A stretch of DNA of 63,520 nt, filler included, from Methanobacteriota archaeon (GTDB lineage Archaea > JACRDV01), in assembly GCA_024860865.1 (NCBI GenBank). It is 6 parts of 6 records of this genome, joined end to end, with 100 filler letters (N's around TTAATTAATTAA, not from the genome) between each part and the next. Parts side by side here need not be neighbours in the genome. Positions count along the whole stretch, not along the records: positions 60,576 to 63,520 come from JACRDV010000086.1; 5 more parts are not named here. One strand, given 5' to 3'. The notes under the pieces are model-generated. The model saw only the letters and a list, made by a program, of their open reading frames with translations, was not told the origin of the DNA and searched no databases. The position numbers were made by a program, and so were the translations under genes. Numbering within the stretch: position 1 is the stretch's first letter; each line of letters opens with the position of its first letter. Positions 2,327 through 63,520 of the stretch are shown one piece after another.

Positions 2327-3268
2327 TTAACTCGTAAGTAATTCACGACCAGAGAGAAGCCAAATTAGAATAGCTTTTTGAGCGTGAAGTCTATTCTCAG
2401 CTTGATGCCATATGATGGAGTGTTTAGTGTCATCTATGATTTCATCGGTCACTTCCTGCCCACGATGTGCAGGTAGGCAATGCATGAAAATATAGTCTTG
2501 TTTAGCGTGCGCTGCTAACTCCTTGTTTACTTGATAAGGCGGGAATATTTTGAGTCTCTCTTTAGCTTCATTTTCCATCCCCATCGATATCCAAGTGTCA
2601 CAATATATTATATCAGCATTTTTGACTGCTTCTTTAGGCTCAACAATAATTTGAATTGTAGCACCGGAGTTCTCAGCAAGTTGTTTTGCTTTATCTGCAA
2701 GCGCTGGTTCATAACCTTTAGGACATGCCACTTTCATGTTAACACCAGTAAGTGCACAACCTAACAAAAGCGAGTTGCAAACGTTATTTCCATCGCCAAT
2801 CCAAGCTAGGTTTAGTCCTTTAAAGCGACCTTTATTCTCTAAAATAGTAAAAAGATCACTGATAACCTGGCATGGATGCTCTAATGGAGAGAGCGCATTT
2901 ATTATTGGCACAGTCGAATTTTTAGCCAAACTGACTATTGTTTCGTGCTTTTTAACTCGAGCAACTATTGTATGTACATACCCGCTAAGAACCTTTGCCA
3001 AATCTTCTATACTCTCGCCCCTGATTAGTTGTAGAGTTTCAGGTTCTAAAAATAAAGGATATCCCCCTAATTCACTAATTCCGACGGCAAAACTTATTTT
3101 TGTGCGAGTTGAGGGTTTTTCAAATAATAAAGCAATTGCTTTTCCCTTTAAAAGATTTGACGTTCTCCCTCCTTTTCGTTCTTTTTTTAATTTTTTAGAA
3201 AGCTTAAAAATATTATTGATATCATCTCTGCTGAAATCCCCAACAGAAATCAAATCACGTTTGTTCAA
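2327..3268 (-). CDS. argF: Ornithine carbamoyltransferase
   Basis: FEKPSTRT, HPCQ, GDGNNV, DTWISMG, HCLPAHRG, QAENRLH. Confidence 0.95.
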   Translation of the reverse strand: MNKRDLISVGDFSRDDINNIFKLSKKLKKERKGGRTSNLLKGKAIALLFEKPSTRTKISFAVGISELGGYPLFLEPETLQLIRGESIEDLAKVLSGYVHTIVARVKKHETIVSLAKNSTVPIINALSPLEHPCQVISDLFTILENKGRFKGLNLAWIGDGNNVCNSLLLGCALTGVNMKVACPKGYEPALADKAKQLAENSGATIQIIVEPKEAVKNADIIYCDTWISMGMENEAKERLKIFPPYQVNKELAAHAKQDYIFMHCLPAHRGQEVTDEIIDDTKHSIIWHQAENRLHAQKAILIWLLSGRELLTS

Positions 3269-3412
3269 GAAAATCGCCCATAAATTTTTAAATGTGTATC
3301 AAAGATTTCTTTTTGCTTTCCTTCCAAAATACACTTCTCTCAAGGTTTTTAAAACTGCAAATGTTTTTTGGTAATATAGATGGATCTATCTTAAAGTATT
3401 TACATATTTAAT

Positions 3413-3940
3413 TTATTTTCTAACTCCGAGATCTTGAACAGTGATTAATGGAACAAGAATAATGCCATGCATTTTTAGACTCTCGCTAGCTCCTTCAAGT
3501 CTATCCACAACAACGAATGCTTTTTCTACAATTCCACCCAAATCCCTAACCGCTTTTGTTGCTTCAATAATGGATCCGCCTGTTGTGCTAACATCCTCAA
3601 TTATAACAACTTTTTCGCCGAGATTAATCTCTCCTTCAACTAGGCGCTCAATTCCATGTTCTTTTGTTTGCTTTCTAACTATTACCATAGGGATATTTGT
3701 TCTCAAACTAATTGCAGTTGCAATTGGAATTGCTCCAATAGCAATGCCTGCAATTTTTGCTGGCTTTTCTTTTTTAACTAATTCGCTCATATCTCCAGAA
3801 ATCATGTTAAGCAAAGCGGGATCTGTAGCAGCTTTTTTAATGTCAATATAATAATTGCTTTTTCTTCCTGAAGTTAAAGTAAAATCTCCAAATTTAATAA
3901 CACCCTTTTCTTTTAAAGCATTTGTAAGGGCTCGTAACAT
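3413..3940 (-). CDS. pyrE: Orotate phosphoribosyltransferase
   Basis: FGDFTLTSGRKSNYYID, RKQTKEHG, PRPP motif IIEDVSTTGGS. Confidence 0.95.
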   Translation of the reverse strand: MLRALTNALKEKGVIKFGDFTLTSGRKSNYYIDIKKAATDPALLNMISGDMSELVKKEKPAKIAGIAIGAIPIATAISLRTNIPMVIVRKQTKEHGIERLVEGEINLGEKVVIIEDVSTTGGSIIEATKAVRDLGGIVEKAFVVVDRLEGASESLKMHGIILVPLITVQDLGVRK

Positions 3941-4200
3941 ATGATTAGCTCCTTCTCATCAGCTTGAATTTTCCTTAATGTTTGAGCAAAGTCATACTTA
4001 ATTTTAGTTCGAATTCTATTGCTCAGTGGTAAATTAAGTTTCTCAAATATGAAACTATATAATAGCTCTGAGTTCGCAAAGAAGAGCGCCCCCAATCCTG
4101 GCTTTAAAAGGGCACGAATTCCAATTTCACCAAATCTGTTTAAGTAGTTCTTTCTTAACCACTCTTCAAATTCTGTAATTGATATTTTTAATTCTTTCAT
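3913..4200 (-). CDS. Hypothetical protein in the carS-radical SAM-pyrE operon
   Basis: 95-aa ORF overlapping both neighbours on the same strand. Confidence 0.55.
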   Translation of the reverse strand: MKELKISITEFEEWLRKNYLNRFGEIGIRALLKPGLGALFFANSELLYSFIFEKLNLPLSNRIRTKIKYDFAQTLRKIQADEKELIICYEPLQML

Positions 4201-5300
4201 ATTCGCTCAAGTATATTTTTTATTTGGGCTAGTTTCTCAGGTACTTGAACAATAAAACCATAATTTATCAAAAGTTTTCTAGTTAACTCGTTTAAATGAA
4301 TGCCATCTAAAGTATAACCTTCTGTATCAAACATTGCACTTGGCAAAATCATAGCTTTAATTGAGGGAGTCCCATTCAAGCTCTTAGCACATCTCAAGAG
4401 ATCTTTTGCAGTTAATAGACCGGTTGAACCAATGCTTTCTCCAAACACACTGTTTTTAACAGGCACTACCTTCACAGTCGGAAAGACTCTTTCTAAACTA
4501 TGTGCGCTTAGCTCTCCGGTTATTATATATGTTGGAATTTTTGGCCGAACTGAAAAAGGTTTAAACTCTGGAAAAAGGTCTTCGCCTATCATAGCCTGAA
4601 AAGCTGGTGAAAATTTAACTTCTAAGTTCAAATTTAGATCTTGAACTTTTTCTTTAATCATTAACAACTCATTTCTCGTTAAAGCTCTAATTTTTCTTTG
4701 AAGTTTTGTTATACCGACTGGAAATAATCTTGCCTCTTTTGCTTCAGCTTCATTTAGGTCCATGAGAGTTTGCCCAATTTCTTTCGCATTATAATTCGGG
4801 ACTAGAACCAAATCTGCAATTAACTCGATTTCACGCGCAGAGAATTCTGGCAAAAGTTCGATTAATTTGCCTGCATTCGGGTTTTGCACCAATTTAACTC
4901 TAGTTTTTGGATTTGTAGTATGAACTGAAATTTGAATTTGATCGAGGCCAGCTTTTGCTAAACTTGTTATCCTAGTTTTGTTTAGTTTTACATTCCCAGA
5001 AGTATCAGTTACTCTAACAATTTTAGCTCCAAGTTTTTTTGCAAGTTTGATCTTTTGTTCAAGTTTTATGTCGTTAAGAGCATCACGTTTTACCGTTATC
5101 ACTCGGCCGCGCGGCTTAAGTACCAGCTTTGGATTTTGGTCAATATAACAAAAGATGCATTTATTCCCACAATGCCCGGAGTCGGAAGATGTAGAAATAA
5201 TTGTTAACCCATCTGGTTCTGGTAAGCTGTCAAGTACATCAACTGCTATACAATGGAGTTTTTTGTCTTCACCAAGTTCACTTATCATGTTTTCTACCAA
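4197..5300 (-). CDS. Radical SAM Fe-S protein with DUF512 domain
   Basis: CGNKCIFCYIDQNP, ISVHTTNP, PVGITK, ITGELS, NSVFGESIGSTGLLT. Confidence 0.75.
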   Translation of the reverse strand: MVENMISELGEDKKLHCIAVDVLDSLPEPDGLTIISTSSDSGHCGNKCIFCYIDQNPKLVLKPRGRVITVKRDALNDIKLEQKIKLAKKLGAKIVRVTDTSGNVKLNKTRITSLAKAGLDQIQISVHTTNPKTRVKLVQNPNAGKLIELLPEFSAREIELIADLVLVPNYNAKEIGQTLMDLNEAEAKEARLFPVGITKLQRKIRALTRNELLMIKEKVQDLNLNLEVKFSPAFQAMIGEDLFPEFKPFSVRPKIPTYIITGELSAHSLERVFPTVKVVPVKNSVFGESIGSTGLLTAKDLLRCAKSLNGTPSIKAMILPSAMFDTEGYTLDGIHLNELTRKLLINYGFIVQVPEKLAQIKNILERI

Positions 5301-5776
5301 GGTTCTTTTTTCAGGCCAAGCTTATATCCAGTAGCATTTACGGTGAAATGTGCCAACGGCGTAAAAACAACAAGTATGAAAAAAGTTGTAAGATATATTG
5401 GAACAATAAGCGAAGCTGCCAATATAGCTCCACAAACAAAGTCAAGCTGATCAAGAAGTGGGGCAAAAGCTCCTCTCGGCAATCCAAATCTCCTTTTTAT
5501 AAAAGCTCCAAAAACAGCGTCTCCAAAAATTGCACCAGCTCCTAAGCTGAGTCCCAATGGCAAATTTCCTTGGAGAGCTCCGATAAAGGCACCCCAGAGC
5601 ATACCTGCCAGTGAACCTTTGAAAGTCACCGATTCACCAAAAATTCTCTTGCCATCAAAGAAATTTTTGCCAAAATCAACTGGCTTACCACCACCGAAGA
5701 TTGCCGCTGACATATTTGCAAAGTAAGCTGGCAAGAAAAACCAAATTGTTTGAGCAAATAATTGTAAATAATCCAT
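5294..5776 (-). CDS. carS: CDP-archaeol synthase
   Basis: LPAYFANM, PVDFGK, DGKRIFG, FIKRRFG, LDQLDF, C-terminal KKEPW. Confidence 0.92.
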   Translation of the reverse strand: MDYLQLFAQTIWFFLPAYFANMSAAIFGGGKPVDFGKNFFDGKRIFGESVTFKGSLAGMLWGAFIGALQGNLPLGLSLGAGAIFGDAVFGAFIKRRFGLPRGAFAPLLDQLDFVCGAILAASLIVPIYLTTFFILVVFTPLAHFTVNATGYKLGLKKEPW

Positions 5777-6181
5777 AAATTACCGACTCAACTGAAGTGA
5801 TAGTATAATATGAGCAATTAATTATATCATAGGTGTTATTTAGGAATCTTGTTACTACAGTGGCTTTTCTAAGCGCGATAGAGTTTGTTTAATAATGCTT
5901 CAGCTTCATCATTAAATCCCTATCGCTGAAAATGTCTAAAGCTAAAGTTTCAACGTAGGGTATTGGCTCTTGGGCTGAAGGAGTTCGCGCTCCTCCAATT
6001 AATATTTCTTTCAATATCAGCGGTAGGCATTTCTTTTTGTATTTTAATAGACATCATATTCGAAAAGCCTTTCACTACTTTGTTCATCTTCAAAAGATCC
6101 AAAAAGGATAAAAAATTTGGGTAATTATGTGCCTCCGAAAATAAAAAGTCAAAAAAGTTCTAAAATAAAACTCAGACTTAA

Positions 6182-6264
6182 GCAGTGGGTTGAGAAAAGT
6201 TATTTTTTATAACTTTTGGTACAATGAAGTTAGGTCCAGCGAGAACATTGACCCAACCCACTGC
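6182..6264 (-). ncRNA. Candidate structured small RNA (three-stem junction), function unknown
   Basis: 11-bp inverted repeat GCAGTGGGTTG/CAACCCACTGC enclosing two further stems; TATA-like CTTAAATA on the minus strand about 24 nt upstream. Confidence 0.35.
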
Positions 6265-6408
6265 AAAAAAACTTTAGTTAATCTAATTATTTAAGTTTTA
6301 AACAATTTTTCTTATTGGTTTTTAAATTTAAATCTGATTCTCTTATTAATCAAATAATCTAAAAATTTAGAGATTGCTTATACAAAAAACTACTTGAAAA
6401 GAAAAAAT

Positions 6409-7167
6409 TTAAAACATTAACTCAGTTGAATCTTTCCATAAATATTCAAAATACTCCTTTGCAAAGGTAGCGAGGCCTGGTTCATCTGACCAAATCCCAA
6501 GTTTCTCCTGCAGTGAAGCTAATAGCAATAAAATCTCTCTGCTATCAACAATCACCCCGCCGCCAAAAAGAGTTTCCTTGTATCTAACTTTAAGTTTAGG
6601 AAAAGGCTGCATGAACAATTTGATTTTTGGATTTTTTTCTGCAAATATCATTCGAACTTTAATTTCTTTTGTTTGAAAAACTTGAAGGAAAGGCTGGAGC
6701 CGAATTGCTTCAGGCTCCGTTAAACTCGGAACTACAACTAATACCTCATTCTGAGCGCGGCGCAACATTTCTTCTATTTTTGTTAAAACATTTCTAGCTC
6801 CGTGAATTATCCAAACATCTGGTCGCTTTGTCTCAGCTTGTTTTTCAAAAATGGGGTTAAGCTCTTGTAAAACGCTTTCTCCAGCTTGTGTAAGAGATCT
6901 TTCGAGTCTTTCTTGTGCTATTCTAATTGCATCTCCTGGTGGTTTAGCTCTGTATCTAATAGGCCTACCAGAATGAACTTCTAACCAACCTCTGTGTTCA
7001 AGTTTACTTAACACGTCATAAATTCTAGAGTAAGGAACACCGGCAATCTTACTTACATCACCTGCGGTCGAAGCACCAGCATTAACTAAGGCAACGTATA
7101 CCTTAATTTCATACTCCGTAAGACCAAATTGTCTAAGGGATTTTAGGACCTTTTCGCTAATTTCCAT
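6409..7167 (-). CDS. TrmB-family transcriptional regulator
   Basis: FGLTEYEIKVYVAL, GVPYSRIYDVLSKL, GRPIRYRA; C-terminal effector domain with IVDSRE. Confidence 0.9.
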   Translation of the reverse strand: MEISEKVLKSLRQFGLTEYEIKVYVALVNAGASTAGDVSKIAGVPYSRIYDVLSKLEHRGWLEVHSGRPIRYRAKPPGDAIRIAQERLERSLTQAGESVLQELNPIFEKQAETKRPDVWIIHGARNVLTKIEEMLRRAQNEVLVVVPSLTEPEAIRLQPFLQVFQTKEIKVRMIFAEKNPKIKLFMQPFPKLKVRYKETLFGGGVIVDSREILLLLASLQEKLGIWSDEPGLATFAKEYFEYLWKDSTELMF

Positions 7168-7338
7168 GTTTTTACCCCTTTAGGTGGTAGATCCAAAATT
7201 TGATCTATCTTGTTTCTGTTTGGAATACAAAAACGAAATAACTACTTTTCAGATTATGAAAAGTTTGATAACATATTTATATTTACTCCTAACAGTGGTA
7301 AATTCTAATTCTGATTTGTTTCTATCTGGAGGTCCCTT

Positions 7339-8841
7339 GTGGTCAAAACTAAAAGCATTTGCCCTGAATGTTTGAAAGCAATCGAAGCTGTGGTTTTTGA
7401 AAGGGATGGAAGGATTCTAATCGAGAAAGAATGCCCGGAACACGGAAAATTCAGTGATACGTACTGGGGAGATGCAAAGCTTTATTATCGGGCGCAAAAA
7501 TTTGCCTGCGATGGAAAAGGCGTTGAAAACCCAGCAACTAACCACGAAAATTGCCCATGGACCTGCGGTCTCTGTAATGGTCATCTCTCTCATTCTGTCC
7601 TCGGAATAATTGATGTGACCAATAGGTGCAACCTAAAATGCGATTTTTGTTTTGCTAATGCTGGTGCTGTTGGATATATTTACGAGCCAAATCAAGAGCA
7701 AATTTGGGAAATGTTATTAGCGCTTCGAAATAATAAACCAGTTCCTTGCCCCAGTGTACAAATGAGTGGCGGCGAGCCTTTAATTCGAAGTGATATCGTT
7801 GAACTAATTAAGCTTGCTAAAAAAGCTGGCTTTCCTCACACACAAATCGCAACCAATGGATTGATGCTTGCCAACAAGCCAGAGTTAGCAAAAGAACTTC
7901 GAGAGGCTGATTTAAACACAGTTTACCTTCAGTTTGACGGAGTGACACCTGAACCTTACCTAAAAGAGCGTGGTCTTAATCTCCTGCCTGAAAAACTTAA
8001 AGTTATTGAAAATTGCAGAAAAGTTGGGCTTGGGATCGTTTTAGTTCCGACTCTTGCAAAGGGTGTCAATGACAGCCAAATTGGAGACATGATTAGATTC
8101 GCAGCAAAAAATGCAGATATCATTCGAGGAGTGAATTTCCAACCAGTTAGTTTTGCTGGTAGAATCGCAAAAGAAGAGCGAGAGCAAAGAAGGATAACAA
8201 TTCCAGATTTAATGAAGCTAGTCGAAGCACAAACCGACGGAGAGATCGCAGCTGAAGACTTCTATCCAATTCCAAGCATAATTCCTTTCTCTGAATTTGT
8301 TTCTGCTTATGAAGCAATACCTCAAGTTGAATTCACTACCCATGTATGCTGCGGCGCTGCTACTTATGTCTTCCTCCATGATGGCCATTTCGTTCCAATA
8401 ACTAGATTCGTTAATGTTGAAGCTTTCTTTAAATTAATGAGCGAACTTGCGGCCGATATAAGAAAGTGGGGAGTTTTAGGTAAAGCCAAGGCCATACTAA
8501 AAGCAACTACTTCTCTTTCAAAAATAGTTGATGAAAAAAATAAGCCGAAGTGGTTTGACTTTAAGGAATTGATCATTAACATACTTGAAAAACGAAATTA
8601 CGATGCACTTGCCGAGTTCCATTATAAGAGTTTATTTATCGGTTGTATGCATTTCCAAGATGCTTACAATTTTGATATTGAGCGGGTGAAGCGCTGTGTA
8701 ATTCACTATGCCGTCCCGGATGGGCGAATCATACCATTCTGTGCTATGAATACGATTTATAGAGAAAAGATTGAAAAGCAATTTAGTAAGCCATTGGTTA
8801 TCTCAACTGTTCCATCCGAAACAGCTGCTGTTCAGAGTTAA
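7339..8841 (+). CDS. tes: Tetraether lipid synthase Tes (GDGT-MAS, MJ0619 family radical SAM)
   Basis: N-terminal CPEC...CPEHG, CPWTCGLC, CNLKCDFC, C-terminal MHFQDAYNFDIERVKRCVIHY...IIPFC. Confidence 0.88.
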   Translation: MVKTKSICPECLKAIEAVVFERDGRILIEKECPEHGKFSDTYWGDAKLYYRAQKFACDGKGVENPATNHENCPWTCGLCNGHLSHSVLGIIDVTNRCNLKCDFCFANAGAVGYIYEPNQEQIWEMLLALRNNKPVPCPSVQMSGGEPLIRSDIVELIKLAKKAGFPHTQIATNGLMLANKPELAKELREADLNTVYLQFDGVTPEPYLKERGLNLLPEKLKVIENCRKVGLGIVLVPTLAKGVNDSQIGDMIRFAAKNADIIRGVNFQPVSFAGRIAKEEREQRRITIPDLMKLVEAQTDGEIAAEDFYPIPSIIPFSEFVSAYEAIPQVEFTTHVCCGAATYVFLHDGHFVPITRFVNVEAFFKLMSELAADIRKWGVLGKAKAILKATTSLSKIVDEKNKPKWFDFKELIINILEKRNYDALAEFHYKSLFIGCMHFQDAYNFDIERVKRCVIHYAVPDGRIIPFCAMNTIYREKIEKQFSKPLVISTVPSETAAVQS

Positions 8842-39871: not shown

Positions 39872-42244
39872 TTAAAGAAAATGATTTAAACTTGTTTGTG
39901 GAGTCGTGGGTTTACTCATAATTCTATCTCTATTTTCGAAAATCGGTATGCCGTACTTACCATCAAATCCTGGAACATACTTTATATTTCCTTCTCTTAC
40001 TCTTATTATTGCATTGACAATTTTTTCATTTGTTACTTTTACTAGTTCTTCTTTAGAGACATTTAATAGAACATTGAGTTCATTCCCAAATTTCTCTATT
40101 AGTTTATCATGCTCTTGTATAACTTTTTGTGAGTAAAGTTGATTAATGCCCATAGTATAAGAGATGATTTCATATAGCGGCAACAAAGTTTTGAATGGAA
40201 TTGCGTCTTTAGGAACATAACCTTCTGGTCTATCGGCTAATTCTTCTACTCTATGTAGCACTCCGATAGTTAGTTTTCTTCTGCATTTTGGGCAAATATT
40301 GCCGAACTTCTTTGCTTCTTGTGGGCTAAGGCTAATATTACAATTTCTATGCCCATCGAAGTGGTATTTCCCGTAACTTGGATTTGTCTCAATTGTAAAC
40401 AAGAATCTCTTTCTATCTTTCTTTTTTATAGCATAATAAATTTCTTTATAGCTAATTTCTTCCAGCTCGAAAACATTTGCTTCTCTTCCTAAGCGCCAAG
40501 GGTGTGGAGAGTGTGAGTCTGAATTTGAAACTAATGTAAACTTATCTAAAGAAGATAACCGCCAGTTCATCGCAGGGTCTGAATTTCCACACCAAAGTGG
40601 AATGCCATTTCGACGAATATAAATGACATGATTTGGAACTGCTGCACAAAACACCAAGCCATTATAATCGACCCAAGATTCTATGTAATTATATTTTTTT
40701 ATTGTTGATGGCAAAGTTATGGGTTTATTTTGCCTAATGAAATAGGCATCCCAAGAATTTTCTTTTTGTCTATATATTTTATTTTGAGAAGGAGAAAGAA
40801 AAGGCGTTCCTTTTTCCTTTTTTAGCTTATAATAAGCCGAAATCCCGATTTTTAAGGCTATTTCTTGCAAATCATCGCGTAGATGAATTGAGGTTGTGGT
40901 TGCCGATAAACCTTTTTTATTTCGTCCATAAATATGTCCATCCCCTTTAAGATAATATTTGAGCAAAATTTCTAGCAGTTCTTTTGAAAGGGATTTTATA
41001 TCAGAAGGAATAAATTTTATATCAGAAGGAATAAATTTTTTAGAACAATTATTAAATTGTTTAAGATAATTAAATAGCTGATAGTTTCTCACTCTGAGGA
41101 CATTACCCCATTGATAAGCCCTATAACCAAAACTTCTAAGAATTTGTTTCATTTCATTTAGTAAAGTTTTATTCTGATTACATACATAAACATCATAGCT
41201 ACCATTTCCCCCATAGCTTACCCATCCTTCTGCTAACCAAAAACCAAAAAATTTTAACCAAGATTTCATTGATAATTTTTTTTCTTTTTTAATACGAAAT
41301 CCCGAATAATACCAATTTCCGTGTTTTATCTTCGAAGCGGGTAATACGAAATACTTCTCGCTTTTGCCCATCCAAATACCATCTTTCCTAAATCGTTTTG
41401 CCCTACCAAATAGATGCTGAGCTTCTTTCAAAATGAACGGTTTTGGGTTTCGGAAATCGCAAGGAGCATATAAAAGTTTATGATTAGGGGTGACTAATAA
41501 GTCGACTCTTTTTGTCTTTAACCTATACATCTTTCCTTTGTATCTATAGGTGAATATTCCTATTGGTTTTTGAAATTCAATCTTATCAGTTTTGAGATTT
41601 AGAGTACAAATTTGATCAGAATATTGTACTTTAGAGAATTTTTTCCATCCATTATTGGTTAAAACTTCCGTTTTTTCATCATAGCAAGAAAGTCCTGTTT
41701 CTAAAGAAAAAACATGCTTAGTTTGATCTTGATAGCAATCTTCTACAGAATCAAATCCAGATTTGCTTCCTAATATCGACCTCCAAGGGGTCCAGATATG
41801 GCTACTAGTTATCATAATGTCTTTTGAAATGCTAATCAGAATCTCAACTAGTTCTGGTGCAGATATATTGAGGTTAGGTCTTCCATCGATACTGAGATTT
41901 CCATACTTGGATAAAGTTTCATTTATCTGCTCAACAATTTCAAAGGATGGCGCATGAATTAAATGATGGATATTTTTAATCTTTCCTTCATACTCAAAAA
42001 TAGTCCCAATTTCGGTTGTAAGCGCGAACCAAATGCCGTTATATTTAAATAAACTAGTTCCTTCTATTGATTCTAACTTTTCTTTTAATTCAGCCAACCA
42101 GTTTGGAAACGTAAAATCCGATGTTCCTAGTAAGTTTAGTCCTTTGGTTTTTGCACCAGCTGCAAGTCCTTCCAAATTCATTTTTTGACTTGTTGCTCTT
42201 GAATACAAAGAGTGAACGTGAAAGTCCCCAATCACTAATACCAA
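39872..42244 (-). CDS. endoQ: Endonuclease Q (PHP + Zn finger) interrupted by an intein; about 422 aa after splicing
   Basis: DFHVHSLYSRATS, HIWTPW, ETGLS|SDPAMNWR, SNSDSHS, LGREAN, GKYHFDGHRNC, CPKC, GVLHRV, PGFDGKYG. Confidence 0.9.
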   Translation of the reverse strand: MVLVIGDFHVHSLYSRATSQKMNLEGLAAGAKTKGLNLLGTSDFTFPNWLAELKEKLESIEGTSLFKYNGIWFALTTEIGTIFEYEGKIKNIHHLIHAPSFEIVEQINETLSKYGNLSIDGRPNLNISAPELVEILISISKDIMITSSHIWTPWRSILGSKSGFDSVEDCYQDQTKHVFSLETGLSCYDEKTEVLTNNGWKKFSKVQYSDQICTLNLKTDKIEFQKPIGIFTYRYKGKMYRLKTKRVDLLVTPNHKLLYAPCDFRNPKPFILKEAQHLFGRAKRFRKDGIWMGKSEKYFVLPASKIKHGNWYYSGFRIKKEKKLSMKSWLKFFGFWLAEGWVSYGGNGSYDVYVCNQNKTLLNEMKQILRSFGYRAYQWGNVLRVRNYQLFNYLKQFNNCSKKFIPSDIKFIPSDIKSLSKELLEILLKYYLKGDGHIYGRNKKGLSATTTSIHLRDDLQEIALKIGISAYYKLKKEKGTPFLSPSQNKIYRQKENSWDAYFIRQNKPITLPSTIKKYNYIESWVDYNGLVFCAAVPNHVIYIRRNGIPLWCGNSDPAMNWRLSSLDKFTLVSNSDSHSPHPWRLGREANVFELEEISYKEIYYAIKKKDRKRFLFTIETNPSYGKYHFDGHRNCNISLSPQEAKKFGNICPKCRRKLTIGVLHRVEELADRPEGYVPKDAIPFKTLLPLYEIISYTMGINQLYSQKVIQEHDKLIEKFGNELNVLLNVSKEELVKVTNEKIVNAIIRVREGNIKYVPGFDGKYGIPIFENRDRIMSKPTTPQTSLNHFL
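40583..41686 (-). mobile_element. Intein with LAGLIDADG homing endonuclease (368 aa)
   Basis: Starts CYDEKTEVLT; block B VTPNH; LAGLIDADG-like FGFWLAEG and YYLKGDG; ends VPNH...WCGN followed by Ser+1. Confidence 0.92.
40994..41035. repeat. 21-bp in-frame tandem duplication inside the intein
   Basis: TTTTATATCAGAAGGAATAAA x2, giving FIPSDIK-FIPSDIK. Confidence 0.95.
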
Positions 42245-60475: not shown

Positions 60476-60575
60476 NNNNNNNNNNNNNNNNNNNNNNNNN
60501 NNNNNNNNNNNNNNNNNNNTTAATTAATTAANNNNNNNNNNNNNNNNNNNNNNNNNNNNNNNNNNNNNNNNNNNN
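60476..60575. other. Artificial contig spacer
   Basis: N-run, TTAATTAATTAA, N-run. Confidence 0.99.
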
Positions 60576-61282
60576 ACAAGATTCACAGTTGGGTTTATTA
60601 TACCATACCTTACTAAATGAATTGGATTGAGCCCTTGATCTTCGGTTTTTTTGGCTTTAAAAGGATAATAAGCATTACTAGCCCCAATAAGAAATGCAAC
60701 TGGTGCAAAGTTTGCTATTTTGTGACCTGCAGCATATAAAATTTCTGGAATACCTAATGCAAGTGCTGTATATCCAACAGCACCTAGTGCCATTATTCTA
60801 GTATACTTATTGTAGAAATTGTCTTTTATATCACTCCATATCCCTTTAACATCAGGAATTAGGTATCTATTAATCCAAGATTTGGCGCCATCGTACATTG
60901 CTACAAAAGTTGCATTATAGGCAGTAAGAGCATAAGCTACTTTTCCAGCAGCATTTAAAAGCCCTGTGCCCGGAATTAAAGGGGATGTAAGGTCCCATAA
61001 CTTGGTTATAGGATAAATTATAGTGTTAATGGTTGCGTAATTTGTAATTGTGTCATTCACTATTTCATAAATTAATTTAGATTTGTCTTTAATTCTTTTG
61101 ATTAAACCTCCTGCAAGAGTTCCAAGTGCTAAACCCCCTCCTATGAAAACACCAGTCAATCCAACAAAGGGCATGCTTAACGCTGTTGCAGTTGTAGTTA
61201 CTACTGACTTATAGCCAAGCGTAAAAGCTTTCCTCATAAAGCCCTTGCTTTCCTTATCCCCAACTTTATGTTCTAAATCCAT
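60576..61282 (-). CDS. Hypothetical membrane protein, 3'-truncated by contig edge
   Basis: Long ORF with several hydrophobic segments and GAGG upstream. Confidence 0.6.
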
Positions 61283-61415
61283 TTTCTTCCTCTAACAATT
61301 TTTTCGCCGCATATTCCAAAAAGTGGCTTTTGTTACGGAATTTGCCAGAAGAAAGAACCCTAACTATTTCGTACACTAATTCTTCATCTAAAGTTACACT
61401 TAATTTATGCTTCAT
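61266..61415 (-). CDS. Ribbon-helix-helix DNA-binding protein (49 aa), missing from the ORF track
   Basis: MKHKLSVTLDEELVYEIVRVLSSGKFRNKSHFLEYAAKKLLEEENGFRT. Confidence 0.75.
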   Translation of the reverse strand: MKHKLSVTLDEELVYEIVRVLSSGKFRNKSHFLEYAAKKLLEEENGFRT

Positions 61416-61516
61416 TTTTTGTATGTAAGTACTATTTAGTAGTATATCATACTGCCATATATAAATTTTTCTATTTTAATTACTTTAGAATAGTTACATA
61501 TTCTATAGAAATTTTA

Positions 61517-62806
61517 CTATTGGAAGTATCTTGAAAAAGTGTTATGGGCTATTATGTCATTTGCGATGAAGTTGTGTGTATTTTCTATTTCCAAATCATA
61601 AACTTGTTGTGGCTCATGAACTTTAATGGAAACTATTTTTGCCCATTTTATACAAGAGCTAGAAGGTAAAAGCTGGAAGCTGGAAGCCCCTTCTAGCTCT
61701 CCACCTTCTACTCCACTTTTACCTTTTACCTTCCAGCTTTCGCCTATATTACACCTTTCATAATCAGGAATTGCAATTTCATCACCAACTTTGAGTTCTG
61801 AAACCTTGAGCCATTTTGCATTAATAAGTGATTGATTTTCAATAAATTTAAATACTTCATTATCGTTATTTATTCCATGAGAATCGAAATTAATGATTAT
61901 GTCGTTGTTGACTCCAATATTTGCCATGGACAACCTACTTTCAAAGGCACAAGAATCATGATTTCTATAGTTCTGGAAATGCTCGAAGATAGAGCCACTA
62001 CTAAAGAGATTATTGAAGCTTATCCCTCCTTGACTAAAAAGCATATCAAAGCAGCTTTGAAGTTTGCTGCCCAAATCACAGAAAGAAGTTTCGAACTTGT
62101 CCCTGCTTAAAATGAAGTTCTTATTTGATGAAAATGTACATAAAGGATTATTTTCTTTCTTATCTAAATTAAGACATGATGTTAAATTATCTCCTAAGGG
62201 TATTGAGAATGGAGAAGTATTTGAGCTAACTTTATCAGAGCAAAGATTACTAATTACACGCGATAAACACTTTACTGAAGAGCAGTTTACTTCTTCTAAG
62301 CATTTTGGAATCTGGCTATTCAGAATCCGTGCAAAAGATTTAGAAGCACAGAAACGTGCAATCTCCAAATTACTAAAGCAACACTCCCCTGAAGAATTTG
62401 AGGGTAAAGTTATTAAACTTGTTCCTGACGATTTTGAATTTTTGTAATTTTTAACCAAATAAGGATGGTTGCCTGTGGTATTAATTGCTCTGTACGGTTC
62501 TGTAGTTAATTCAAATATGGTTTTATTTTCCATATTCAACAAAGCATTTACTTTATTAGAAACAAGCTTTCCAGTTTTTTCATTTAAGCTTAAAACAAAA
62601 TCATCTGGCTTAACATCCTTGATTTTCTTTTTTGTTGTTACGTAATCAACTACACCACAGTCTAAGCTTGGGCATAGCTGCCTGAATTCATTTATAGGAA
62701 TTATTAAATAATTTGAATTTTTCCAGCTTCTAACTTTATTATTAGGATTATACTTTGACGCTGGGGGTGGGAAATTCATCTCATTGCTGAGAGAATTTGA
62801 ACCCAC
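61517..62806 (-). CDS. Intein-like Hint-domain ORF with an antisense gene cassette inserted in frame; true start unknown, block A not recognisable
   Basis: N-half IKDVKPDDFVLSLNEKTGKL...INTTGNHPYL; C-half KWLKVSELKVGDEI...KIVSIK...VYDLEIENTHNFIANDIIAHN|T; one uninterrupted frame. Confidence 0.8.
   Translation of the reverse strand: MGSNSLSNEMNFPPPASKYNPNNKVRSWKNSNYLIIPINEFRQLCPSLDCGVVDYVTTKKKIKDVKPDDFVLSLNEKTGKLVSNKVNALLNMENKTIFELTTEPYRAINTTGNHPYLVKNYKNSKSSGTSLITLPSNSSGECCFSNLEIARFCASKSFARILNSQIPKCLEEVNCSSVKCLSRVISNLCSDKVSSNTSPFSIPLGDNLTSCLNLDKKENNPLCTFSSNKNFILSRDKFETSFCDLGSKLQSCFDMLFSQGGISFNNLFSSGSIFEHFQNYRNHDSCAFESRLSMANIGVNNDIIINFDSHGINNDNEVFKFIENQSLINAKWLKVSELKVGDEIAIPDYERCNIGESWKVKGKSGVEGGELEGASSFQLLPSSSCIKWAKIVSIKVHEPQQVYDLEIENTHNFIANDIIAHNTFSRYFQ
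61657..61745. repeat. Degenerate 7-bp repeats in two inverted arms
   Basis: AGCTAGA-AGGTAAA-AGCTGGA-AGCTGGA versus TCTAGCT...TTTACCT-TTTACCT-TCCAGCT-TTCGCCT. Confidence 0.7.
61841..61854 (+). promoter_or_regulatory. Putative archaeal BRE/TATA promoter of the DUF433-DUF5615 operon
   Basis: AATAAA-TTTAAATA ending about 23 nt before ATG 61877, the spacing of a leaderless transcript. Confidence 0.6.
61877..62110 (+). CDS. DUF433 antitoxin (VapB45-like)
   Basis: VDSNICHGQPTFKGTRI, EIIEAYPSLTKKHIKAALKFA. Confidence 0.92.
   Translation: MRIEINDYVVVDSNICHGQPTFKGTRIMISIVLEMLEDRATTKEIIEAYPSLTKKHIKAALKFAAQITERSFELVPA
62112..62447 (+). CDS. DUF5615 PIN-like toxin (VapC45 / Mut7-C type)
   Basis: MKFLFDENV, HDV, RLLITRDKHF, HFGIWLFRI; starts 1 nt after the DUF433 stop. 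Confidence 0.88.
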   Translation: MKFLFDENVHKGLFSFLSKLRHDVKLSPKGIENGEVFELTLSEQRLLITRDKHFTEEQFTSSKHFGIWLFRIRAKDLEAQKRAISKLLKQHSPEEFEGKVIKLVPDDFEFL

Positions 62807-62867
62807 GTACCCGCGAAGGGTACCAGATCTTAAGTCTGGCGCAATAGCCGAACTCTGCCACCCCAGC
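62759..62867 (-). tRNA. tRNA-Leu(UAA) with a 23-nt intron at position 59/60 (62773-62795)
   Basis: Acceptor stem GCTGGGG/CCCCAGC, anticodon arm CCAGA-CTTAAGA-TCTGG, long variable arm, T stem GTGGG/CCCAC with an intron forming a bulge-helix-bulge. Confidence 0.9.
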
Positions 62868-62890
62868 TTTGTCTCTTTATTTTCAACCTA

Positions 62891-63520
62891 CTTTGTTGCA
62901 TAATTATTTCAGTTTTCACCGTCTGAGCAAAATTCTCTTGACGCATGAGAATTTACCTTCAGTCGCCCATCTCTTGTCATGTGCCCCGTCGGCACATGCT
63001 TTTCTGATTTGCACGCCTTGATTGGCAAGACCGTTTATATGCCTTTCAAAAATATCTGGCTCGCTATCACCTTTTTCAAATACCTCGATATCCAAAATTT
63101 TCTTTTTCTCCACATCCACTGTAATTACTGCCTTTATCCATCCTCTCCTGACTTGCCATTTCTGCCTCATCCACTCTCACCTATTGCTAACCTTAATGCC
63201 AGAGCCATCATTGCCTACAAAGATGGGCTTATCAAAATCAATGTCTGGAAGGTTAAGCTCTAAATCGTTAACTCTCCTGCATATGTTGCTGTAATTAAGG
63301 CTGCAGCTTTGACTCAAATTCGATAAAAGAATTTGTGTACTGATAGGGCTTTCCAACTTTATTTTTGTTCATCTCCTTAAGCTCTTGCGGTATGCTCTCA
63401 AGAAAAGAAAAGTCAAAAAACCATTCTCCTCTTTTAATGAGCCTGGAGTTGTATTCAACCCAATTTCTCTTATCTTTGAATTGTTTGCCCCATCTTTCTG
63501 GTTTCGGCATAAAATCACCT
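62891..63520 (-). mobile_element. IS5-family (IS903-like group) element, transposase pseudogene
   Basis: RNWVEYNSRLIKRGE, DGSGIKV, RRGWIK, ADGAHD joined directly to RWATEGKFS (deletion), frameshifts; terminal CTTTGTTGCATAA resembles IS903-type ends. Confidence 0.8.

Follow-up and report, generated by a model that had tools for sequence, protein, structure and literature searches.

Introduction

The persistence of inteins is usually attributed to homing endonucleases or to a location in genes that the host needs, and to our knowledge their sole known cargo is an endonuclease encoded on the same strand and inserted at one conserved site. A locus in a stretch of 63,520 nucleotides from a Methanobacteriota archaeon (assembly GCA_024860865.1; the whole stretch that was analysed is called the window) raises the question of whether an intein can also house genes that run in the opposite direction. 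One minus-strand frame near the end of this window holds both halves of a Hint domain, and the DNA between the halves carries on its plus strand a complete predicted toxin-antitoxin (TA) operon with its own promoter. An earlier note, made from the sequence alone, had proposed that the intein shelters these passenger genes inside a host open reading frame (ORF), that protein splicing discards the junk translation, and that the TA pair could stabilise the element by addiction in place of homing.

The best explanation of the evidence gathered here, with a probability of about 0.7, is that the locus is a relic mini-intein, and that its intact relatives shelter a frame-preserving antisense TA module in the loop that follows block B of the Hint domain. 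The module is a compact unit of 0.6 kb on the opposite strand, in which an archaeal promoter precedes the genes of a DUF433 antitoxin and of a PIN-like toxin (DUF5615), and it belongs to a cassette family that keeps its non-coding strand free of stop codons in the frame of the host. In the intact relatives, we infer that ribosomes would translate through approximately 190–210 meaningless, disordered residues, which protein splicing would then remove along with the intein. The TA operon would be transcribed independently and in the opposite direction. The intein would offer the cassette a harmless site within coding DNA, and the cassette may, more speculatively, impose a cost on cells that lose the intein or this part of the host gene.

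Anatomy of the Locus

The minus-strand frame is open from 62887 down to 61520, with a TAG stop at 61517–61519 and the upstream stop at 62888–62890. From stop to stop (61517–62890, minus strand) it comprises 456 codons. The frame first crosses a tRNA-like element, then the Hint N-half, next the antisense strand of the TA cassette and lastly the Hint C-half. A 429-residue ORF of this frame matches the Pfam family Intein_splicing (PF14890) in two stretches with an E-value of 2.2e-19. The N-half (62450–62674, minus strand) extends from CPSLDCGVV to TTGNHPYLVK, reads KKKIKDVKPDDFVLSLNEKTGKL ahead of the latter, and contains the block B motif TxxH with its His at 62465–62467. The C-half is divided in two on the same strand: a first part (KWLKVSELKVGDEIAIPDYE) at 61756–61816 and a second part (from IKWAKIVSIKV to VYDLEIENTHNFIANDIIAHN), followed by Thr at position +1, at 61538–61648. 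The Pfam stretch over residues 329–422 corresponds to profile positions 75–155 of 155. The terminal Asn of the intein ends at 61541 and the next residue is Thr. The claim of a single stop-free frame holding both Hint halves proves exact to the base. Between HPYLVK and KWLKV lies a read-through stretch of 211 codons without a stop (61817–62449, minus strand), whose complementary strand carries the TA operon together with its promoter.

In the AlphaFold2 (AF2) model of the 429-residue ORF, built from 20 aligned sequences, the Hint segments mostly reach predicted local distance difference test (pLDDT) values of 70–91. Beta-strands are predicted, with block-mean pLDDT of 71–91, over most of them (residues 61–120, 331–350 and 381–410), with values of 72–86 at residues 61–120 of the N-half and of 83–91 at residues 331–350 of the C-half. 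The residues expected for splicing are present: C45, located 14 residues before KKKIK as in the related loci L001 and L020, the TGNH motif, and the AHN|T junction; the same catalytic residues occur in L001, L020, L002 and L024. That C45 is the true first residue is uncertain; the EFxxxCPSLDC junction also occurs downstream of another cassette in L067. Taken together, the sequence of the window ORF is that of a Hint fold with N- and C-terminal splicing regions and catalytic residues, and splicing itself is predicted. The PT-HINT family matches only below its cut-off (16.3 bits versus 27.7). Pfam finds no endonuclease family in the 429-residue ORF, and the conserved endonuclease-insertion site holds only an imperfect palindrome of 107 nt (61649–61755, minus strand; inverted repeats I2, I3, I5, I6 and I11), read in frame as about 35 codons. 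This palindrome is polymorphic, as a contig of run X1 lacks 61649–61755 and has 11 other letters instead, and its translation has pLDDT below 50 at residues 356–363 and 371–381. It may be a small hairpin-type mobile element.

The opposite strand carries what the earlier note had read there, i.e., a TATA box, a DUF433 gene and a DUF5615 gene. The archaeal TATA box (TTTAAATA; 61847–61854, plus strand) lies 30 nt ahead of the antitoxin ATG, and TTTAWATA occurs at -30/-29 in 16 of the 29 antitoxin upstream regions examined. It is followed by the gene of a predicted DUF433 (COG2442) antitoxin of 77 residues (61877–62110, plus strand; Pfam 1.8e-19), which matches PDB 2GA1 (1.7e-07) and has 16 invariant columns across 18 homologues. 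The gene of the predicted DUF5615 PIN-like toxin (111 residues; 62112–62447, plus strand) starts 1 nt past the antitoxin stop and matches its Pfam family at 8e-15 and Mut7-C more weakly (9.6e-4); a search of the toxin profile against PDB sequences gave no match. Toxin residues D6, E7, N8, D51 and R71 are invariant in 18 homologues, and D6, E7 and D51 are probably catalytic, judging from family membership. A passage of Makarova et al. (2009; PMC2701414) predicts the PIN-COG2442 (DUF433) pair to be a TA system and DUF433 to be a DNA/RNA-binding three-helix bundle. A model of the antitoxin-toxin complex scored 0.82, compared to 0.00 for the best of three controls; this mark is attained by 58 of 80 solved complexes and by 2 of 110 mismatched pairs, counts that are rough because own alignments were used. 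The runs agree in at least 96% of contacts with a partner pLDDT of at least 87, and the modelled antitoxin covers the invariant D6–N8 and D51 of the toxin (residues 6–8 and 50–51). The model thus favours binding of DUF433 to DUF5615, short of proof. No terminal inverted or direct repeats bounding the cassette were found in the window. The operon looks intact, and the activity of the toxin is predicted from its sequence.

Recurrence in Giant Surface Proteins

The architecture is not restricted to the window. A word-indexed protein search gave 68 matches, many of which cover 85–99% of the 429-residue ORF including its antisense part, and an exhaustive HMMER search gave 1475; among the best 150 of their clusters at 50% identity, 51 align across the antisense part, and 17 of these 51 proteins, counted by hand, are 705–6089 residues long. 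DNA scans with two peptide patterns from the antisense frame retrieved 11 genome and 28 metagenome loci, labelled as Woesearchaeota, Nanoarchaeota, Aenigmatarchaeota, Altiarchaeota, metagenome-assembled genomes of 'Methanosarcinales' (1.1–1.6 Mb), Patescibacteria and Omnitrophota. Once near-identical copies were collapsed, 25 distinct cassettes with both genes remained, of which 19 have one antisense frame free of stops and 8–35 stops in the other two.

In six of these loci, in-frame Hint N- and C-halves flank the cassette within very long open frames: at least 4606 codons in L001, 1856 in L002, 608 in L005, 1424 in L006, 1103 in L020 and 2270 in L024, all of these being lower bounds. The same frame encodes seven Laminin_G_3 stretches and a Big_7 domain in L001, Laminin_G_3 after the intein in L020, and Beta_helix/NosD in L024 (all by Pfam). 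In the embedded inteins, position 1 is Cys or Ser, block B reads TxxH or SxxH, and the C-terminal junction is HN|T or N|S. The Hint codons of L001 and L020 differ by 0.21, 0.08 and 0.63 at codon positions 1, 2 and 3, which indicates purifying selection. The hosts of the intact relatives thus appear, from their sequences, to be genes for giant secreted or surface proteins of DPANN-type archaea, of some members of the candidate phyla radiation and of other bacteria. The proposal that antisense genes reside within a host ORF, with the frame preserved in independent assemblies and both Hint halves intact, is borne out by these six loci and fails for the window copy, in which a tRNA-like element and insertion sequence (IS) fragments replace the N-extein. 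The window Hint N-half is 59–76% identical (tblastn) to those of L001, L020 and L023. The last of these is the closest relative of the window on a long contig (292 kb); its intein is broken, with approximately 200 nt that have stops in all frames (6759–6968) between the cassette and the Hint C-half.

The position of the cargo is more variable than expected. L001 also holds a cargo-free relative of this intein, which shares 74% identity with the window N-half, as the earlier note had hoped to find among homologues; its post-block-B loop is about 40 residues long and bounded by two Cys, which contradicts the assumption that this loop normally comprises a few residues, and the loop is variable. 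The cassette is found directly after block B also in a second, unrelated Hint family (L004, L005, L006 and L024), recognised by the motifs SPEH(K/R)VY and KIYDVDVxNDI. In L067 it follows block A, and in the proteins P0008 and P0016 it occupies the canonical endonuclease site, the latter at protein level only. The post-block-B site described for the window thus stands, and it is one of several sites among relatives.

Other antisense cargo, which had likewise been anticipated, occurs in the same loops. A second intein in the giant ORF of L002 carries, in the same loop, an antisense PIN_2 gene (2.3e-19) that is preceded by a small ORF. One loop of L006 houses two modules in tandem, PIN_2 (7.6e-22) and DUF433/DUF5615, with a duplicated Hint segment between them, and tandems akin to this one are present in L026 and L044.

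Stop Avoidance in the Antisense Frame

In the window cassette the antisense frame shared with the Hint domain has no stops, and the other two have 13 and 25. When both proteins were kept fixed and their codons redrawn from the window's own usage (5000 redraws), 0.3% of the redraws were stop-free in this frame (P about 0.003), with a mean of 4.37 stops. The way in which stops are avoided can be read from the genes. Because the antitoxin gene shares its codon boundaries with the host frame, only TTA, CTA and TCA within it would be read as stops, and the window antitoxin contains none of these; as a background, TTA and CTA make up 43% of the Leu codons and TCA 21% of the Ser codons in the long ORFs of the window. 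The toxin gene is offset in such a way that its third codon positions coincide with those of the host frame; it contains no Tyr and does without the small number of codon pairs that would create a stop in the host frame.

This phase is shared by all 18 stop-free cassettes examined, 17 of which have a resampling P0 of at most 0.0185. Among the Leu and Ser codons of the 19 antitoxin genes in the stop-free set, TTA, CTA and TCA occur 0 times in 190, compared to 5 in 38 in cassettes with antisense stops and 7 in 42 in the other DUF433 pairs examined. The open antisense frame is not a product of chance.

Weighing the Alternatives

Several observations weigh against the explanation preferred here. 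Both DNA-scan samples are biased, since they were obtained with antisense-peptide patterns. An unbiased sample, taken with the Pfam DUF5615 family, covered 201 genomes from a single phylum and gave 22 matches, spread over 14 genomes; 7 of the 22 loci are stop-free and only one of these, L067, lies within a long ORF. Six of the 25 distinct cassettes have antisense stops (1, 1, 2, 3, 6 and 12), and in L023 the Hint C-half is out of frame; homologues with minus-frame stops or a shifted Hint frame, which the earlier note had regarded as damaging to its proposal, therefore do exist next to the stop-free majority. When the synonymous codons of each gene are shuffled within that gene, 25% of the shuffles are stop-free (P = 0.25). 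The window copy has neither host exteins nor a start codon that would include the first Cys, and the constraint on its Hint N-half is relaxed: differences at second codon positions are 0.25–0.29 over all 75 aligned codons (0.21 in a 34-codon comparison with L002), compared to 0.08–0.15 among intact relatives over the same 75 codons. Finally, some stop-free cassettes have no recognisable intein around them (L008, L036 and L062), which means that protein splicing, offered by the earlier note as the reason for the open frame, cannot be the only one.

These last loci deserve description. In L008, a single uninterrupted frame of at least 3677 codons connects two surface-protein-like parts, and about 13 genes are encoded opposite it on one strand (approximately 2500–8560, some 6 kb). 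These genes include three PIN_2 genes (1.2e-10 to 5.5e-22) with small partners, two aspartyl-protease-like genes, small membrane ORFs and a DUF433/DUF5615 pair. Pfam finds no Hint domain in L008, and our own Hint profiles match only fragments (E = 0.0013–0.023). In L036 (5583–9853) two cassettes are present as separate ORFs of 241 and 252 codons, the start ATG of each overlapping the stop of a duplicated N-terminal fragment of a surface-protein gene, with the full gene downstream; this looks like serial insertion with target duplication. In L062 the cassette comes after a duplicated gene end. Long direct repeats of host sequence, of 15–20 or more codons and thus exceeding the usual length of target-site duplications, flank the cassettes of L006, L008, L026, L033 and L062. 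Other cassettes stand in short contexts that retain recognisable Hint remnants (L004, L007, L009 and L066). We conclude that freedom from stops is a heritable trait of the cassette lineage in translated host DNA, for which inteins are the clearest harbour and not the only one.

An origin of the open frame by chance or composition, or of the whole locus by chimeric assembly, is close to refuted. The within-gene shuffle speaks for chance, but the difference between its 25% and the 0.3% obtained by resampling locates the adaptation in the codons and residues that the genes use; open frames of 1100–4600 codons in DNA of about 35% G+C, and the 4–19 stops found in every antisense frame of free-standing DUF433/DUF5615 pairs of the same genomes (L010, L014, L017 and L022), speak against it. 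As to a chimera, the contigs aligned to the window are short pieces, and among those listed none spans the stretch or bridges 62427–62610, so that these contigs neither confirm nor contradict the junctions in this sample, but the same junctions recur in independent assemblies from many samples. A frame kept open for a purpose might instead encode a functional third protein or an intein domain, as the frame stays open even in decayed contexts and some copies start with ATG (L036). The pattern of substitutions makes this very improbable. Between the window and L001 the changes fall mainly on third positions of the TA codons ([7,1,14] over the three positions in the antitoxin, [5,1,30] in the toxin); over the antitoxin overlap, most substitutions hit first positions of the antisense reading, and identity is higher for the TA reading than for the antisense reading in 21 of 21 pairs. 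In the AF2 model the insert, predicted to lack structure, has pLDDT below 50 at residues 123–306 and 308–323 and only two four-residue strands (297–300 and 303–306); Pfam matches nothing in it, and its composition is rich in Ser, Cys, Asn and Leu. A third protein was rejected on these grounds. The third-position bias, the identity comparison and the disordered insert together argue that the TA proteins are the selected reading and that the host-frame reading is merely kept open.

Two further alternatives concern what the cassette is adapted to and how it moves. The stop-free strand may be an adaptation to any translated or heavily transcribed host unit, in which case inteins would be one harbour among others and splicing would be incidental; an open strand would keep ribosomes on the read-through host mRNA, avoiding polarity or decay, or would make a new insertion tolerable. 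This alternative overlaps with the favoured explanation rather than excluding it, and it is a tentative possibility of real weight, with the balance leaning somewhat against it. It would account for the L008 island opposite a frame without a Hint domain, for the L036 ORFs coupled to duplicated gene fragments, for the long direct repeats, for the 10 stop-free cassettes in short open contexts and for the six of seven stop-free loci of the unbiased sample that lie in such contexts. It does not explain why, in intact contexts, the cassette mostly sits exactly within Hint domains, in three of their loops and in two unrelated Hint families, nor the Hint remnants in many of the short contexts. It is also conceivable, though improbable, that the TA-like pair is no addiction module but the engine of mobility, a two-part nuclease in place of a homing endonuclease. 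DUF5615 is PIN-like and thus nuclease-like, DUF433 is predicted to be DNA/RNA-binding in the passage cited above (PMC2701414), the same cassette is found in two unrelated Hint families, and conservation is much higher in the cassette than in the flanks: the toxins of the window and L001 are 92%, the antitoxins 90% and the Hint halves 55–69% identical, with third-position differences of 0.18–0.27 in the cassette and 0.49–0.53 in the flanks. Against such an engine, no shared target sequence or terminal repeats were found at the cassette borders, insertion sites differ, unrelated PIN_2 pairs occupy the same loops, and the modelled antitoxin covers the acidic site of the toxin as inhibitor-type antitoxins do. 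The unequal divergence, the two Hint families, the variety of insertion sites and the duplications beside the cassettes suggest that inteins may exchange cassettes through recombination. A blastn search with 61400–62900 gave no match in a plasmid collection, and none of 124 pattern matches in viral contigs was confirmed as a copy.

The Window Copy as a Relic

Within the favoured explanation, the intein in the window is, on its sequence, a truncated mini-intein relic. There is no ATG, GTG or TTG between the tRNA-like element and the first Cys, and the next in-frame start lies deep in the Hint N-half; the only candidate starts, GTG at 62806 and ATG at 62781, are both within the tRNA-like element. 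On the other side, the C-extein consists of seven residues (TFSRYFQ, followed by the stop), which resemble TGRYFQYKADF of L001 but are cut short. The region upstream of the frame (62916–63519, minus strand) contains fragmented ORFs tentatively read as IS or transposase remains, with Pfam matches below the cut-offs (DDE_Tnp_1, E = 0.11; DDE_Tnp_1_2, E = 0.13). As these remains reach the end of the window, they may be the cause of the missing rest of the host gene.

The tRNA-Leu(UAA)-like element (62759–62867, minus strand) is read in frame and matches the Rfam tRNA family at 30.9 bits, just above the threshold of 29. Its acceptor and T-stem pairing and a 22-nt T-loop insert were read by eye, and ARAGORN calls no tRNA in the window. 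A near-identical tRNA-Leu-like copy with the conserved 22-nt insert, its anticodon read by eye as CAG, is found in L002 (4380–4490, plus strand), in frame at the endonuclease site of an intein in the giant ORF and beside a degenerate second copy. The proteins P0010 and P0001 contain the translated tRNA-like element beside Hint pieces. The element may be a functional tRNA gene, a site of attachment or a repeat. In L006 a further tRNA-like match (3794–3875, plus strand; ARAGORN tRNA-Ile GAU; Rfam 31.1 bits) lies about 200 nt past the intein C-half within the same contig-long open frame. Just downstream of the relic, the window holds an ORF of 49 residues (61266–61415, minus strand) that looks ribbon-helix-helix-like by eye and has no Pfam match, and then a membrane-like ORF of 252 residues (60524–61282, minus strand) whose end runs into masked N near 60527–60580.

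Relation to Known Systems

The closest parallel is found in inteins with LAGLIDADG or HNH homing endonucleases, in which selfish cargo likewise occupies a Hint loop, the host frame passes through it and the cargo is, or is presumed to be, removed by splicing. In contrast, the cargo described here is an operon of two genes on the opposite strand, has a separate promoter, does not belong to the intein polypeptide, has no obvious homing activity, and uses other loops besides the endonuclease site, the conservation of which among inteins is described in a passage of PMC6801210. The organism also has the ordinary kind of intein: a 790-residue ORF in the window (39872–42244, minus strand) matches LAGLIDADG_3 (2.2e-13) and, weakly, Intein_splicing, and its N-half shares 48% identity with the second of the Hint families that carry cassettes.

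As a TA pair, the cassette resembles type II PIN-COG2442 (DUF433) systems in that the antitoxin comes first, the genes are 1 nt apart, both Pfam families match, the acidic PIN residues are invariant and binding is predicted by a model of the complex that outscores its controls. It differs from other PIN-DUF433 pairs in that the members of this clade are embedded antisense in ORFs or inteins of a host and keep the opposite strand clear of stops, whereas pairs of these families at other places in those genomes have stops there. Among nested genes and antisense overlapping genes, the Rpn toxins and their intragenic antitoxins, as presented in a part of PMC10327210, are similar in that one DNA stretch serves two reading needs. 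In the cassettes described here only one of the two readings codes for a functional protein.

Two other comparisons help to place the system. Homing-endonuclease genes are found antisense in some group I introns; there the host removes the cargo as RNA and there is no frame to keep, whereas here the host would translate through the cargo, which constrains the codon choice of the cargo. Hint or bacterial intein-like domains also occur in variable surface proteins and polymorphic toxins, and the present domains likewise belong to large proteins that are secreted or lie at the surface, and not to replication proteins. They differ in that they end in HN|T or N|S like true inteins and match PT-HINT only below its cut-off. 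No description of antisense cargo in inteins was found in the open-access literature and bioRxiv, supplements aside, which leaves its absence from print unproven.

Concluding Remarks

Compared to known inteins with nested cargo, the arrangement differs in the opposite strand, the separate promoter, the number of genes, the number of sites and the coding constraint placed on the guest. A wider reading can be formulated, for which the odds fall just short of even. According to it, DPANN archaea and some ultra-small bacteria harbour an undescribed class of guest genes whose stop-free non-coding strand lets them live antisense in translated ORFs. The class would comprise TA pairs (DUF433/DUF5615 and PIN_2), aspartyl-protease-like genes and small membrane genes, found one at a time in intein loops, arranged in tandem along with duplicated Hint segments, or gathered inside one giant ORF in islands of about 6 kb and about 13 genes as in L008. 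Inteins would act as refuges from which the junk translation is removed once the protein is made, and TA pairs would replace homing endonucleases in keeping the composite element in the genome. Stop-free antisense guests in translated ORFs would be categorically new.

The inteins described here, which reside in giant surface proteins that look non-essential, carry independent operons on the opposite strand, and this makes the stabilisation of an intein by TA addiction a testable idea. For genome annotation the finding calls for caution, as gene callers fuse or miss antisense guest genes. It would show that several intein loops can accommodate foreign stretches of 200 to over 500 residues, a property of practical value for the engineering of inteins, and would provide a natural case of strong dual-strand coding constraint. 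For the very compact genomes concerned, it would represent a new way in which selfish or defensive genes hide inside coding DNA.

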